Shown: one piece after another, positions 3,395-59,234 of the stretch
Layout: the number at the start of each line of letters is the position of its first letter
How positions within the stretch are numbered: position 1 is the stretch's first letter
NCBI GenBank assembly: GCA_037310415.1
Contig: CP147780.1
Span: forward strand, 1,024,001-1,088,000
Length of the DNA: 64,000 bases
Direction: 5' to 3'
DNA from: Candidatus Atabeyarchaeum deiterrae
Lineage (GTDB): Archaea > Asgardarchaeota > Atabeyarchaeia > Atabeyarchaeales > Atabeyarchaeaceae
Made by a program: the position numbers and the translations under genes
Notes under the pieces: generated by a model
Told to the model about the DNA's origin: nothing
The model's input: the letters and a program-made list of their open reading frames with translations, nothing else
The model's database searches: none

Positions 3395-6300
3395 ATGACT
3401 ATTAGCTTCATCAAGGAGCCTCCATACTCAGAGAAAGAGACGCTCGATAGGTTGCGCCCATATGTGGCTCAATGGTTCAGAGAGACGTTTCAAGAGATGA
3501 CTCCCCCTCAGACATACGCCATTCCATTGATTCACGAGGACAGAAATACGCTTATATTCTCGCCCACCGGCTCTGGAAAGACGCTAGCTGCGTTTCTTTC
3601 AATGATTGACAAACTCTTCGCAATGGGAGAAAAAGGAGAGCTAGATGAGACCATCTATGTCCTCTATGTCAGCCCTCTGAGAGCACTAAACAATGATATC
3701 AGACGCAACTTGATGATTCCACTCGAAGGCATAAGAGAAATCTCACGCAAGGGCAATCTAGAGTTACCCCTCATCAACCTAGCTGTGAGGACTGGGGACA
3801 CACCTCAAAATGAGCGCAGCAAGATGCTTCGACATCCCCCTCACATATTGATAACAACTCCCGAGACGCTGTCGATTATACTTACTTCACCCAAATTTAG
3901 CCAGAAATTGAAGACGGTCAAATGGGTGATTGTTGACGAGATCCATGAGTTATGTGACTCAAAGAGAGGGGTTCACTTATCCTTAAGCCTTGAGAGACTG
4001 CAAAACCTCATCGGGGTTGACAAAGAGTTCGTGAGAGTAGGTTGCAGTGCGACTCAGGCTCCCGTGGAAGAAATAGCAAGGTTCCTAGTGGGATACCGTG
4101 ATGATGACTCATTCAGAGACTGCGACATTGTCGACGTTTATTCGACTAAATCCCTTGACATAAGAGTTCTGTGTCCGGTAGCAAATCTTGCGTATGCTAG
4201 CTACGACTCTGCGACTGATAGCATGTACGACCTTCTCAAGAAGCAAATCGACTCTCACAGAACAACTTTGATATTTACAAATACTAGAAGTGGAACTGAG
4301 AGAGTCTCTTTCAGGCTTAAGGAACTGTACGGAGAAGAGCATGTCGACCAACTGGCGGCTCACCACGGCAGCTTGAGCCGTGACACTAGACTCGATGTTG
4401 AGGAACGCCTGAAAAAGGGAATGTTGAAAGCCGTCGTAAGCTCAACTTCACTTGAACTCGGAATAGATATAGGATACGTTGATCTTGTCTCTCAAATTGG
4501 AAGCCCAAAGAGCGTCGCCAAAGGCCTACAGCGAATTGGGAGAGCGGGTCATGCTCTGCATGAGACATCAATTGGACGACTACTGGTCTTTGATCTAGAC
4601 GACCTTGTAGAGTGCACTGTTCTGGTCAAATCAGCTTATGAAGGCAAGATCGACAGAGTTGCAATCCCAAGGAACTGCTTGGATGTTCTATGTCAGCACA
4701 TAGTGGGCATGAGCATCCAATCTAGATGGTCCGTTGCTGACGCATACCAACTCGTCAAGCGTTCATATTGCTACCATGAACTATCATTTCAGGATTTCAT
4801 GAGCGTGGTGAAATACCTTTCCGGCGAACATGTGAGTCTCGAGGAGCGAGGAGTCTACAGGAAGATCTGGTTTGACGAGGAACAACAAGTCTTCGGGCGG
4901 AAGAGAGGCGCCCGAATGATATACTTCTTGAATGTGGGAACTATTCCAGAAGAAGCTAATTATAGAGTTCTCCTTGAGGAATACAGGAATCCGCTAGGTC
5001 AGCTGTCTGAGAGCTTTGTTGAACGACTCCAACCCGGCGACATTTTCGTTCTCGGCGGCAGGGCGTATGAGTTCAAAAGGACAAGCGGAATGAAAGTTTA
5101 TGTTGGACCAGCCTTCGGTAGACGTCCAACTGTTCCGTCATGGAGTGGCGAGATGCTTCCAAGAAGCTTCGACTTGTCATGCGAAATCGGCAAATTCCGC
5201 CAGGAACTATCAGACAGAATAAGGAAGGAAGGGCTAGATGTTGCTCGAAGATGGCTTCTGGAGGAGTACAAAGTAGATGAGAGATCAGCCGAGAGCATTC
5301 TGGTTTATTTCAGAAATCAACTTGCGATCACTGGAACTGTGCCAACCGATAAGAGGATCATAATTGAAGGATACATCGACAAAAAAGGTCGGCTCAATAT
5401 AGTCTTCCATAGCGTGTATGGCCGACGGGTGAATGATGCTTTAAGCAGAGTATATGCCTATGCTGTAAGCAAGCTCGCAAGAGCTAACGTGGCTACCGCA
5501 ATTCTCGATGATGGATTTGTGATAACCCTCCCAGCTGGGCGCATGATTGATCTAGCAGGAATCCCTCCACTTGTGACACCTGATAATGTCGGGGTATACA
5601 TACGCAAAGCGATCAGAAGAACTGAACTCTTCAAGCAGAGATTCCGCCACTGTGCAGTCAGAAGCTTCATGGTTCTGAAAATGTACAAAGGGTGGGAAAT
5701 CTCTGTCAGTAGACAGCAAACAAGAGCCGTGAAGGTTCTTGACTTGTTGGAAGGGACGGATGACTTTCCGGTGGTGAAGGAGACCTACAGAGAGATACTT
5801 GAGGACGTAATGGACCTACCGAACGCCACGAGCATTGTCAAGGGAATATATGACGGTGAGATAGATATCCGAGTTCTTCCCCTTACTGATGTTCCATCCC
5901 CATTCTCCCATAGCTTGATCCTTGTGGGCGCGGAAGACGTTGTCCTGATGGAGGATCGCGGAGCGCTCCTTAGGGAGTTGCACCGCCAGGTTCTCGCGCG
6001 AGTTGTCGGTGAAGCGGGTGAGGCGCTATTCTCAGAAGAGATAGTCCAAACTCTGTATAATCAGAGGCAGCATGTTACTCCCGAGAGCCACGGGAAAGTT
6101 AAAGAAGATATTCCAAGAATACTTCACGATATAGGACCATCCGAACTCTTCCGAGACACCTACCCAACAATCCTAAACAGAATGGTTGTCGACCCTGACA
6201 CTACTAGGAACTGGGCAAGAGAGCTTGTTGCCGACAGACAGCTGATTATAATTCGAACAGCGAAAGGAGAACTGGATGGCGTCACAATAGACGACTTCCC

Positions 6301-55613: not shown

Positions 55614-55986
55614 CTATTGGCTGCTCTCCAAACGGCTCACGTAGTCTCTGTGATCGAGCATCGCTCTTATGGCTAGTGCTGCCGTCTGAGGTTCCTCGTA
55701 TACCGGGATGCCACCTTCTTGCCTAAGGTACCGCAAGACCCTGCTATCTTCATTGGCATGTATCGTTAATCCGATTATTGGCTTTCCGTATCTATGCTTA
55801 AGTTCCGCAAGCAGTTTGGCTTCATCCAGTTCTCGTTTTGTTCCCATCTCCGTTATGATCGTATCTTCTAAGACAACGGTGAAAGCTTCGAGTAACCCGA
55901 CACCTATGACTATCACGCAATCTATGTAGCCTTCTTTGAGAAGCGTTTCGGCGCATGTAGACACAACGCCTTCCCCGAAGGCTCCG
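55614..55986 (-). pseudogene. 3' remnant of an ADP-forming acetate-CoA ligase alpha-subunit-like gene
   Basis: IDCVIVIG...YGKPII...GIPVYEEPQTAALAIRAM matches the C-terminal flavodoxin-like domain. Upstream sequence switches abruptly to low-complexity DNA. Confidence 0.7.
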
Positions 55987-56263
55987 TTTTTGTTTGAGGA
56001 GCATTTTCTCGGCTCGGTTTTGTTTTTCCGCATTTTCTTTTGGTTCTTCACGCGCGTGAAATGCATGTTTTCTTGGGTGGTATTTGAAGTCCACGCGGGG
56101 CATTTTTCGGTGGTGCATTCTACGGTGCCGTAGACTGTTTTGCATGATTCTTCGGATTCTGTCTGGTTTTGCGTTTTTGTTGCAGTTTCGGTCTTGTTTT
56201 GCATTTTTCGGTGGTTCTCATAGCTTCTCCTTGCACGGATCTGTGGGTCGGCAGACGTGTGGA

Positions 56264-56280
56264 GTTTTGGCTCGGGGCCC
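56264..56280 (+). repeat. 17-bp direct repeat, copy 1 (GTTTTGGCTCGGGGCCC)
   Basis: 16/17 identical to 57517-57533. Confidence 0.7.
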
Positions 56281-56397
56281 GTGGTCGCCTTGTTAATGGG
56301 ATCGAAAGTATTGAATCTTGCGATCTTCAACAGACTTAAATACGTGGAATGTTGGAAGTATTTTCAATGCTAAAATTAGGAGGGTGAGAGAGGAAAA

Positions 56398-57075
56398 ATG
56401 TTGAAGCGTTCTAGTCGTCTAGCTTTGATAGTGGTTACGACTATTCTCGTTTTTTCGCTTTCGTTTGCAATGTCCGCTCGACCAGTGTCTGCGGGTCAGA
56501 CGTTCATTAATTCGGTTCGATTTGGGAATGATTTTGGTTACGGAAGGATCAACGTCGATCTCTACCGCCAAGGTACTGGATACAGTTTCAAGGTGACATT
56601 CTACTACGAGATATGGGTGTGCACAGACGTACGTTACTACCCCCAAACGGGACATATAGACAACCTGAGGCTGGGGGTCGACACTTGCAACGCGGCGCAC
56701 ACGCAATGGTACCACCAGCTATATTCTGGATTAGTGATGTTGACTGGGGTAGTTAACCAGTATTTTGAAATTGGTGGTACGCAGGTTGCCACTAAGTATC
56801 ATGATGGTGTGAAGTATACAGTCTACTACGGGACAGTGATCTTTGGACCGACCTATAATCCGTACAGTGGACAATACATCAACGCCTACATGATGTGGGG
56901 TGCATGGAATATCAACATGATATATTTCGAAATCATTGTGAGTATGAATTATGCCGAGCTTGCGAAAGATCAGAATGCGTTAATAATGGACTATTTCCGA
57001 GATCTGTACTCGAACGCGTACCAAGTTACGTACTTCCCGGACGTATTCTTCTTAGCTAACCCGCCCTGGCAATGA
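56398..57075 (+). CDS. Secreted Tyr-rich hypothetical protein
   Basis: Sec-type signal MLKRSSRLALIVVTTILVFSLSFAMSARPVSA; strong purine-rich RBS; aromatic beta-rich mature part. Confidence 0.8.
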   Translation: MLKRSSRLALIVVTTILVFSLSFAMSARPVSAGQTFINSVRFGNDFGYGRINVDLYRQGTGYSFKVTFYYEIWVCTDVRYYPQTGHIDNLRLGVDTCNAAHTQWYHQLYSGLVMLTGVVNQYFEIGGTQVATKYHDGVKYTVYYGTVIFGPTYNPYSGQYINAYMMWGAWNINMIYFEIIVSMNYAELAKDQNALIMDYFRDLYSNAYQVTYFPDVFFLANPPWQ

Positions 57076-57127
57076 ACACGCCGCAAATAAGTCGATTAGC
57101 ATAATCGAAACAAAGAGAGTCTGGAGT

Positions 57128-57148
57128 ATCTTCTCTTTTTCTTTTTTT
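57128..57148 (+). terminator. Oligo-T archaeal terminator
   Basis: TTCTCTTTTTCTTTTTTT tract about 55 nt after the stop of 56398..57075. Confidence 0.5.
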
Positions 57149-57516
57149 GGGTCTTCTTAAGACCGTATTGATTCTACGATAGTCGGAGAAGAGTTAGGTG
57201 ATGAGAGGACTTCTAGTGTTAACTGAGGGTATGTTCAACAATGCAGGTTGCGCCAGGTCAGGAATTCGTGGAGAAGTATGTTGAGAGGATGAATTCTCCT
57301 TGTAGTGTTTGAACTCTTGATTGCTGCTCTCTATTTTGCATTTAGAGGGGTAAGCTAACTAGTTTTGCCCTGGTGTTCTTGGGGCGTTTTTGGCGCTTGC
57401 TCTTCTTGGCTTGCCAGTTGCTTCTGTTAGAAGCGTTTGTCTGGAGTGCACTTTGTTCGTGGGACTATTTTTCTCTTGTTTACGTCCATCTGAGGCGACT
57501 TACCCTTAGTTTTTTT

Positions 57517-57533
57517 GTTTTGGCTCGGCGCCC
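57517..57533 (+). repeat. 17-bp direct repeat, copy 2 (GTTTTGGCTCGGCGCCC)
   Basis: 16/17 identical to 56264-56280; forms the left arm of the structured element. Confidence 0.7.
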
Positions 57534-57652
57534 TATGCCTTCGCCCTAAAAGAACAAGTGGCGTATGTTCGGATAACGTTCCACGTGCGCCTACTTTGTT
57601 CTTTTCCCCCTCGCCTCTCGGCTCGGGGTCGGGCTCAGGCAGGGCGCCTCGC
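57522..57652. other. Branched inverted-repeat element (structured RNA or ssDNA site)
   Basis: Nested stems GGCGCCCT/AGGGCGCC, GCCT/AGGC, GCCC/GGGC, AAAAGAACAA/TTGTTCTTTT, CCCC-TC-GCC-TCTC-GGC-TC-GGGG. Confidence 0.7.
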
Positions 57653-57662
57653 AGTGTACGGT

Positions 57663-57696
57663 CAAATCACCTCTCTCTTTCGTTCGAGGTGATTTG
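57663..57696 (+). promoter_or_regulatory. RBS-sequestering hairpin
   Basis: Perfect 11-bp stem CAAATCACCTC/GAGGTGATTTG that contains the GAGGTGA RBS of TTG 57698. Confidence 0.7.
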
Positions 57697-57697
57697 C

Positions 57698-58828
57698 TTG
57701 TACAATAATGATGATTGTTCTCGTGGCTGTGGTTCCTTTGGGCGTCGAAGGTATTCGTTGAGGGTTGATGCTCTTTCCGCTGAGGAGTGGGCTTATCTTC
57801 GTGGCTTGTACCTCGCTGATGGGACTAAGCGTGTTACCTTCTGTCTTGGTGGAGATGAGGTGGAGTTGTCGCTGAAGCTTGTTGATATGCTAAACCGCGC
57901 TGGGTTGAAGCCGATTGTGAAGAAGGATCCAGATGAAGAAATGTTGCTTGTGTCCGCGTGGTCGTTGAGTCTCCTTGAGTTTCTGGGGCGCAAAGGCACT
58001 CTGCTGCATGATGTTGAGGCGCGGAGGAGGTTCTTCGAGGAGAACAGGCTGATGAGTGTTGGGCTGGGTGTTCCCTTCATTGCGGGTCTGATAGACGGTG
58101 ACGGCTTCTGTCAGGTGAGTGTTGTTGATGAGCTTGGTCCCTTCGGCAAGGTGAACAGGTGGAGGTGGGGGTTTGCTCAGAAGAAGTTGCCGTTTCTCCT
58201 CGACTACTTCAGGGAGTTCGTTGAGTCTCTCGCACTCAAGAGCGTAAGGATTCGTGTAATGAGGAATGGCGTAGTTGTTGCAGAGATTTGTCAGGCTGGC
58301 ATCAAGGCTCTACTCAAGGCTGGCATAGCCTCCCACTCAGTGAAGGCGAACCAGTGGGTGAAGAGGGTGGAGGAGCTTGACAAAACGAGTAGGCGAGTGA
58401 GCTATTTGACTTCTAATGAGGTTGCCGAGAAGCTGAGAGTAAGTAAGCCAACCGTGTGGCGCTGGCTCAAAACTGGAAAGATGCGATGTGCCCAGTGGAC
58501 TGCGAGGAGGCTGAAGAACGGCAAGGAGACCTATCTGTCGCATCGTTACATCCATGCGGAGGAAGTTGAGCGCGTGAGGTATGAACTTGAAGAGGAAAGA
58601 GCGCTATTGAAACAAGTCAGGGAAGATGGATACGTCAAGTTCAATGATGTGGCTAGAGTTTTGAACGTTCCGAAAACCACTCTGCGACGGTGGTTTCGGA
58701 GCGGAAGAGTGCAAGTTACATTAGTCCGAGGGCGCAATAGAGACCGCGGGTACTGGATGCCGAGGAAGGACGTTGAGCGCCTCAAGCGCCGGGTCCGCAA
58801 GTCTGAAGACTTTTTGAAACGTCGCTGA
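57698..58828 (+). CDS. Double-motif LAGLIDADG endonuclease fused to two excisionase/MerR-like HTH domains
   Basis: YLRGLYLADG and FIAGLIDGDG; YLTSNEVAEKLRVSKPTVWRWLKTG and FNDVARVLNVPKTTLRRWFRSG. The start is moved from 57515 to TTG 57698 after the RBS. Confidence 0.85.
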   Translation: MYNNDDCSRGCGSFGRRRYSLRVDALSAEEWAYLRGLYLADGTKRVTFCLGGDEVELSLKLVDMLNRAGLKPIVKKDPDEEMLLVSAWSLSLLEFLGRKGTLLHDVEARRRFFEENRLMSVGLGVPFIAGLIDGDGFCQVSVVDELGPFGKVNRWRWGFAQKKLPFLLDYFREFVESLALKSVRIRVMRNGVVVAEICQAGIKALLKAGIASHSVKANQWVKRVEELDKTSRRVSYLTSNEVAEKLRVSKPTVWRWLKTGKMRCAQWTARRLKNGKETYLSHRYIHAEEVERVRYELEEERALLKQVREDGYVKFNDVARVLNVPKTTLRRWFRSGRVQVTLVRGRNRDRGYWMPRKDVERLKRRVRKSEDFLKRR

Positions 58829-59234
58829 GAATGTTGCACGGCAGATGCAACATGCTGCTAGTCGCTATCAACGCGTCTGGCTTGATGGGGTTTGTGGCTC
58901 CTATCTCCAGAAGTGTCCTTATACACCAGAATCATTGGATTTGTGAGCTTCTCGCACATTTTGACCAATACCAGAACTTGTTTTGTGAAAGACCAAGACT
59001 ACACAGAGAAGCTGAACAAGTTACGATGCTGGTTCAGAAAGTGCTCCAGAGTTTTGCGTAATGAAGTATTCTGGTCAATATGATACGAACTAGTTGCATA
59101 TTGCGAGTTTTCTGATTGGATTATGATTGGGATCATTTATAGATATGCAGGTTTATAGAGGATTGATTAGTCATTTCCTAGATGCTTGGCAATAGCGCAT
59201 TTAACATATCATCTGGTGATGGTACTACTGAACT

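Follow-up and report, generated by a model that had tools for sequence, protein, structure and literature searches.

How is a selfish nuclease kept in check? In phage T4, homing endonuclease genes place their ribosome-binding site (RBS) in a hairpin (PMC2988022), and the leaders of I-TevI, I-TevII, I-TevIII, segB and mobE share this arrangement with the locus described here: the Shine-Dalgarno (SD) sequence of a selfish nuclease is buried in a stem before the start codon, with restraint of a toxic or costly enzyme as the presumed purpose. Our locus departs from the T4 leaders in that its host is an Asgard archaeon and that the 5′ arm of the RBS hairpin (hairpin 2) literally mimics the 3′ end of 16S rRNA. 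Moreover, a larger, more conserved and separate three-way junction (hairpin 1), for which T4 has no counterpart, precedes the RBS hairpin, and the alignment of copies shows no conserved TATA-like block between hairpins 1 and 2 that might act as an internal promoter for transcripts with an exposed RBS.

Structured, RNA-like elements beside a mobile nuclease gene, in the end region of the mobile element, are also known as the omega RNAs of IscB and TnpB, and the first-pass annotation of this DNA had likened the hairpin to such a nuclease-guide RNA of the IscB type. We find no support for this comparison: the flanks of the hairpin are conserved leader or promoter sequence rather than a variable, guide-like segment, and the partner is a LAGLIDADG protein in which Pfam detects neither a RuvC nor an HNH domain. 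LAGLIDADG enzymes recognise DNA by their own protein surface. A LAGLIDADG fold fused to a C-terminal helix-turn-helix (HTH) DNA-binding domain is likewise found in bacterial WhiA, a single-copy housekeeping regulator that has lost the catalytic residues, whereas the protein encoded here has kept both motif aspartates and its gene is multi-copy and mobile.

The features that bear on this comparison, all within the 64,000-nt stretch of Candidatus Atabeyarchaeum deiterrae DNA that we analysed (the window), are collected in Table 1.

Table 1. Positions (in the window), strand and basis of the features around the nuclease leader.
Feature	Position	Strand	Basis
Older copy of the A-poor upstream module	55986..56263	+	74% identity with the sequence just before the hairpin on G001 contig C169
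Relic of hairpin 1 (~26 nt of its 5′ start plus the 4 preceding bases)	56264..56291	+	Sequence comparison
ORF225 (225 aa, signal-peptide-like N-terminus, without Pfam match)	56398..57075	+	ORF list, Pfam
T-rich, A-poor tract adjoining hairpin 1 on its 5′ side	57373..57521	+	Sequence composition, alignment
Hairpin 1 (three-way junction)	57522..57652	+	Folds and covariance model R1 (212 bits for the window copy)
Hairpin 2	57664..57695	+	Fold and conservation in all copies
Free-standing, double-motif LAGLIDADG nuclease gene (376 aa) with two C-terminal excisionase-type HTH domains	57698..58828	+	Pfam and NCBIfam

Hairpin 1 had been proposed from the letters of the sequence alone, and both the sequence and the branched fold were borne out, with z-scores of about -8 on either strand. 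As plus-strand RNA, its minimum free energy is -71.3 kcal/mol against a mean of -44.3 kcal/mol for dinucleotide shuffles (z -7.9; equalled by none of 200 shuffles). The minus strand adopts the mirror fold and is equally stable (-72.2 kcal/mol, z -7.3), and the architecture is unchanged on either strand when DNA energy parameters are used. The fold is therefore real and far above chance expectation. Its outer stem is built, in order, of GC / TC-TC / GGCGCCCU / GCCU / UC-UC / GCCC, with an AU bulge at GGCGCCCU. The long arm (57548-57605) carries in its upper part the two G-T wobbles that had been described, seen as U.G pairs in the fold, and the short arm (57607-57628) consists of CCCC / UC-UC / GCC-UCUC-GGC with UCUC as its end loop. 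The predicted plus-strand fold contains exactly three symmetric 2x2 TC/TC loops, the number originally claimed, two of them in the outer stem and one in the short arm; an extra TC lies at the junction. Read on the minus strand, the window copy has tandem G.A loops and a GAGA end loop, again as first described, but the GNRA character of that end loop does not extend to other copies, where it is replaced by TTTT, TTT, TGT or TTC. Searching the whole window with Rfam at gathering thresholds returned no match, and permissive thresholds over 57000-59200 gave chance-level matches only (E ≥ 0.9). Rfam thus identified neither a known intron family nor an IS end, the two identities that the first-pass annotation had set against its own reading.

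The second structure of the leader directly precedes the gene. In hairpin 2, the 5′ arm AAATCACCTC pairs with the 3′ arm GAGGTGATTT, which holds the SD sequence at 57686-57693. Since the 16S rRNA of the same genome ends in GGATCACCTCCT, the 3′ arm represents an 8-nt SD sequence and the 5′ arm a copy of the rRNA tail; in other words, the segment GAGGTGAT, complementary to the 16S 3′ end, is paired instead with an anti-SD mimic. The window's own stem is longer (57655-57704; -23.5 kcal/mol, z -5.5), and the start codon, a TTG at 57698, is buried in it too. Hairpin 2 is conserved in all copies, and the SD sequence is paired in a predicted stable stem directly upstream of the start, the same disposition as in the T4-type leaders, by analogy with which this RBS hairpin would have a clear and known logic. 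An SD-sequestering hairpin implies that the plus strand is read here as mRNA. In every copy, a TTG or ATG follows the same SD sequence at a distance of 4-8 nt. Codons 2-6 (57701-57716, and likewise in other copies) are rich in Asn, Asp and Ser (AATAATGATGAT) and conserved at the nucleotide level; they could hold the initiation region open, or could serve the minus strand as a TATA-like box.

How widespread is this leader? We gathered 39 loci encoding relatives of the nuclease from genomes and metagenomes and searched them with a covariance model (R1) of the 181-nt leader, comprising hairpins 1 and 2. This yielded 13 full or nearly full copies, from three Atabeyarchaeia genomes, which are all the genomes of this class in our collection, and from wetland metagenome contigs. 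Each of the 13 lies directly upstream of, and in the same orientation as, a free-standing gene for a LAGLIDADG protein with excisionase-type HTH domains. The match to the model ends at the start of the tblastn protein match or at most ~75 nt before it, and the start codons that we could locate directly follow the leader's SD sequence. BLAST against the genome of the window (a single 2.76-Mb contig) recovered a second full copy and a degenerate third, both directly upstream of a homologue of the nuclease gene, while a whole-genome search of the three genomes with the model found no standalone leader. The suggestion that the hairpin is a conserved partner of LAGLIDADG-HTH genes has thus held up, with 13 of 13 copies linked and none elsewhere in the three genomes. 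The linkage runs in one direction: about 20 of the family members among the 39 loci have no leader, and an energy scan found no comparable structured leader upstream of them. Two of these members, L059 and L038, are preceded by unrelated structured stretches, that of L059 (1320-1510, genome G002) being AT-rich (-62.5 kcal/mol, z -3.9). Draft contigs C52, C198 and C221 of genome G001 (L022, L019 and L020) end within the leader, C52 and C198 overlapping as one copy; assemblies thus break at the leader as at other repeats, and copy numbers in draft genomes are underestimated.

The partner protein had also been called correctly, as a LAGLIDADG-HTH protein: it combines a double-motif LAGLIDADG region with two HTH domains of the HTH_17/excisionase type. 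Its motifs read LRGLYLADG and IAGLIDGDG, with D and G invariant in seven copies. An AlphaFold model (pLDDT 82; residues 1-17 disordered, with pLDDT below 50) gave the monomeric double-motif enzymes PI-SceI, I-AniI, I-DmoI and I-Tsp061I as best Foldseek matches (E 1e-7 to 1e-6). By sequence and model, the protein is predicted to possess the two acidic-ended helices and the alpha-beta-beta-alpha-beta-beta-alpha double domain of a LAGLIDADG homing endonuclease.

Directly upstream of hairpin 1, the organisation differs between the window and other copies. Most leader copies are preceded by a conserved, A-poor and T/G-rich module of ~290 nt (55986-56263 in the window; 3650-3893 at L023) with many T-runs, repeated GCATTTT words and a promoter-like block, GGGTTCTTATAG, that in most copies lies 45-50 nt upstream of hairpin 1. 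The window's older module aligns with 12 other copies, abuts an orphan acdA tail and has its promoter-like block, GGTTCTCATAG, at 56213-56223. There, the module is followed by a relic of hairpin 1 that stops at the second TC loop, then by a 1.2-kb insert, and only then by the complete leader. Homology with other copies resumes at ~57517, exactly where contigs of related strains diverge, and a weak TATA-like ACTATTTTT is present ~55 nt before the complete hairpin 1. The window's putative promoter, recognised by conservation, is accordingly either the block 1.3 kb further upstream or this weak look-alike. The A-poor module may end read-through from the interrupted host gene and then restart transcription. 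Nine of the 13 copies share a conserved YATG 12-20 nt before hairpin 1 (e.g., L051 1235-1245). Stop codons are nearly absent from every frame of the leader, and in several copies (L026, L051 and, with a TTG start, L018) an ORF from just upstream ends at a TGA inside the SD sequence. No coding signature was found in this short upstream ORF; translation through the hairpins may act as a switch.

What, then, does hairpin 1 do? With moderate confidence, we assign it to the plus-strand mRNA, where it would be the first of two parts of a cis-acting leader that restrains a potentially toxic mobile nuclease. Transcription would start at the conserved TATA-like block ~45-50 nt upstream, which in the window would be displaced or degenerate. 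Since hairpin 1 is flanked by this block on one side and, in like orientation, by the SD hairpin on the other, an mRNA starting at the block must contain it. The first ~130 nt of the mRNA would fold into a very stable three-way junction, and the next 35-50 nt into the hairpin in which the SD sequence is paired with the copied 16S rRNA tail, and which in the window buries the weak TTG start as well. Together, both parts would hold down translation of the potentially toxic nuclease and insulate it from read-through out of the interrupted host gene. Fold, conservation, invariable association with the gene and pairing of the SD sequence are established; that the three-way junction acts as RNA is more conjectural, and our guess at its role is a stabilising structure that caps the 5′ end and/or a docking site. 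The roughly 20 family members that manage without the leader count against this reading. The UC/UC loops would then be contact points for a conserved partner, more likely a host factor than the fast-evolving nuclease.

The leader belongs to a mobile unit. On contig C169 of genome G001, a frameshifted LAGLIDADG unit (L023, 1512-3976) is inserted after about codon 28 of gpn, leaving an orphan 28-codon head of this GTPase gene on the hairpin side and a complete gpn on the other. In the window's genome (G000), cyth and gpn are adjacent (795871-797206) and the insertion site (796372-796520) is empty, so that the first-pass annotation's guess of a mobile unit other than an intron proved right. The window copy itself adjoins an orphan, acdA-like 3′ tail (55614-55985) whose break meets the start of the upstream module; a second copy of the acdA tail, 82% identical in amino acids, is found outside the window, 36 kb to the right (1115813-1116172 of the same genome), which suggests an island of ~36 kb whose left end is occupied by the nuclease unit. 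The second leader copy of this genome is likewise flanked by a duplicated gene head, of 43 aa, and the orphan gene piece is always on the hairpin side. From these orphan and duplicated pieces, we infer that the units insert into protein genes and bring a replacement for the displaced piece. A published survey of Atabeyarchaeia mobile elements mentions neither the LAGLIDADG genes nor the hairpin (PMC11529989).

This setting lends itself to a reading at the level of DNA, in which hairpin 1, extruded as single-stranded DNA or as a cruciform while the DNA is replicated, repaired or transferred, marks the island's left end for recognition in recombination, in the capture of cargo or in homing. We consider it fairly unlikely, yet it accounts for several observations. 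Hairpin 1 sits inside the conserved left-end module of a unit that inserts into protein genes; either strand folds equally well with DNA parameters; DNA tolerates tandem G.A and G.T mismatches, which would account for the mixed strand signals described below; and the primary sequence is conserved far beyond what an RNA stabiliser would need. In the window, a 1.2-kb insert with a foreign gene separates the 28-nt relic from the complete hairpin. This gene, ORF225, is unique in the genome and lies outside the leader family, and the relic-insert-leader arrangement could be the footprint of recombination at the hairpin. It is, however, the sole case found, no further relic being present in the genome, and the relic differs from the complete hairpin start at ~6 of 30 positions, unlike a fresh target duplication. 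Standalone copies or arrays are likewise absent, ~290 nt of conserved A-poor sequence separate the hairpin from the junction with host DNA, and homing by double-strand-break repair requires no end structure.

Known folded recombination sites sharpen the comparison. Integron attC sites are also imperfect palindromes with conserved unpaired bases and adjoining captured cargo, here bracketed by the relic and the full copy. In contrast to attC, our element has a branched fold and is conserved in sequence besides structure, and it occurs neither in cassette arrays nor, as noted, on its own. Among the five nearest ORFs, Pfam matched only the LAGLIDADG-HTH protein and one Hypoth_Ymh; neither a tyrosine nor an HUH recombinase, the kinds that act on folded DNA sites, turned up there. 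The single-stranded DNA hairpins of IS200/IS605 offer a loose likeness if the element is read as DNA.

Which strand, if either, acts as RNA? We counted pairings in a model-based alignment of the 13 real copies, used because RNAalifold on a MAFFT alignment misses the outer stem through misalignment. Standard pairs fill 88% of the helix cells, compared with 40-49% when the partners are slid. Covariation had been set beforehand as a test that could refute the element: it is present, yet modest. Seven pairs have both sides changed, a number reached in 67 of 500 shuffles, although cells with a double change number 16 where 7.5 are expected, which none of 500 shuffles attained. The clear cases fall mostly in the long arm, with one pair seen as U.G, C-G, A-U and U-A and two alternating between A-U and G-C. 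Covariation is thus real but modest in a phylogenetically narrow family, and much of the conserved structure is, by the same token, conserved sequence.

The wobble pairs speak for the plus strand. G.U pairs, which only the plus strand can form, occupy 42 cells of hairpin 1 against 13 for A.C mismatches, their minus-strand equivalent, and the corresponding counts in hairpin 2 are 21 and 5. The free energy is better for the plus strand in eight copies and for the minus strand in four, with the window level. The G.U excess, the promoter-like block and the SD hairpin hence favour the plus strand, while the evidence from loops and mismatches points the other way: the loops are always pyrimidine/pyrimidine on the plus strand and GA/GA, GAA/GGA or AA/GA on the minus strand, and we know of no rationale for pyrimidine/pyrimidine loops in RNA. 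Within helices, Y.Y mismatches outnumber R.R mismatches by 45 to 12. Further TC/TC loops have arisen at new positions of the outer stem, in L051 and L037 and in L041 and L035. Four copies have a lengthened short arm, in which UC, UCC or UUC loops separate a string of short helices. Because new loops of the same kind appear at new positions, the TC/TC loops themselves appear to be under selection.

A structured minus-strand RNA, whether antisense to the leader or a small RNA in its own right, would make sense of these loops. The tandem G.A pairs that punctuate its helices would contact a protein or stabilise the fold, and the RNA would control the nuclease gene in cis. The CGAG/CGAG tandem G.A is a classic stable motif, and unpaired purines together with such motifs are typical of functional RNAs; every internal loop would be of this type on the minus strand, including the newly arisen ones and the loop chains of the long short arms. 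The minus-strand fold is, moreover, the more stable in 4 of 13 copies (by 5-15 kcal/mol, all four with many UC-type loops), and on inspection the AT-rich conserved codons 2-6 could be its TATA box. We nevertheless regard such an RNA as quite unlikely. A.C mismatches would fill ~7% of its helix cells, two of them in the window's long arm, its GNRA loop varies among copies, and no U-run follows the hairpin, where the tract is T-poor on the minus strand, and hence there is no obvious archaeal terminator. The sole RNA library with signal, which carries no strand information, is represented by two contigs (56395-56550 and 56814-57063), both over ORF225, leaving the leader and the nuclease gene uncovered, which counts against the plus-strand leader as well. 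Nor do the loops amount to the k-turns bound by archaeal L7Ae, in which tandem sheared G.A pairs come after a bulge of 3 nt. The minus-strand 2x2 loops do share the 5′-GA/3′-AG core closed by C-G pairs, but they are symmetric 2x2 (or 3x3) loops and free of bulges on either strand, and the wobbles favour the other strand, where they are U.C/C.U. Overall, wobble pairs and gene organisation point, though not decisively, to a plus-strand mRNA leader, not to a separate noncoding RNA.

A more far-reaching proposal is that the three-way junction, rather than a passive leader, is a recognition module, read through its regularly spaced UC/UC (GA/GA) loops as RNA or as folded single-stranded DNA, that together with the LAGLIDADG-HTH protein or a host factor moves an undescribed class of Asgard gene-targeting islands or captures their cargo. 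The relic and the full copy around the foreign gene would then be a footprint of its activity. We consider this very doubtful.

The plus-strand leader could also be bound by the nuclease itself, the LAGLIDADG-HTH protein docking on the three-way junction for autoregulation or using it as a guide or scaffold in target choice. LAGLIDADG maturases bind introns, I-AniI and the bI3 maturase, both of which bind structured RNA, are among the structural neighbours of the LAGLIDADG domain, and the linkage of leader to gene is strict. Still, such a partnership is highly improbable when the two are compared in their rates of change. Over the first 100 nt of the leader, the window copy is 81-97% identical to ten other copies (68% to the most distant), whereas the coding DNA in the same comparisons is 50-65% identical (~80% for the closest relative, L026) and the proteins behind near-identical leaders share only 34-43% of their residues with the window's; a cognate pair should co-vary. 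A maximum-likelihood tree of 32 family members has two deep clades with good support, and genes with the leader occur in each of them; well-supported branches force at least four gains or losses of the leader. Either the leader is ancestral and nearly unchanged, or it is a module swapped between genes. Its conservation and its spread over both clades indicate strong selection independent of the particular protein, and a constraint that does not track the protein favours a host factor or an intrinsic property of the RNA over a cognate protein-RNA pair. Many family members, furthermore, lack the leader, and a variable, guide-like segment is absent.

The remaining candidates can be set aside briefly. 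Concerted evolution within the genome finds no support as the cause of the leader's conservation, as the window's leader resembles metagenome copies more than it does the other full copy in its own genome (77% identical); mimicry of a host RNA finds none either, similar sequence being absent elsewhere in the genome; and a BHB or group I/II intron is contradicted by the lack of tRNA, rRNA (and tmRNA) genes in the window, by the lack of an intron family match, and by the duplicated gene piece, which repairs the host gene without splicing. A coding function of hairpin 1 is rejected, the ORF from 57515 being a chance product of A-poor, stop-poor sequence: in 8 of 11 copies the frame of the gene is closed 0-3 codons upstream of its start, so that the long ORF through the window's hairpin is accidental, copy lengths differ by non-multiples of three, frames vary among copies, and amino-acid changes go along with those in the stems.

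What remains is a genuine structured leader, conserved and so far undescribed, that accompanies mobile genes of the LAGLIDADG-HTH family. Judged by sequence, no part of the unit is more conserved than hairpin 1; the unit itself, built around a selfish LAGLIDADG nuclease gene, has spread among the genomes of a single lineage of Asgard archaea. At ~180 nt and 13 copies, the element adds to a very short list of cis-regulatory or noncoding RNA motifs in Asgard archaea. The multi-copy LAGLIDADG-HTH unit, which repairs the protein genes it invades with a duplicated gene piece, has its left end marked by this element, whose covariance model offers a practical probe for such units in new Asgard genomes. 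As conservation is far stronger in the leader than in the nuclease, and as the leader is spread family-wide, the constraint on it must come from something other than the nuclease. Once found, this partner would show how archaea, or the elements themselves, check selfish nucleases.
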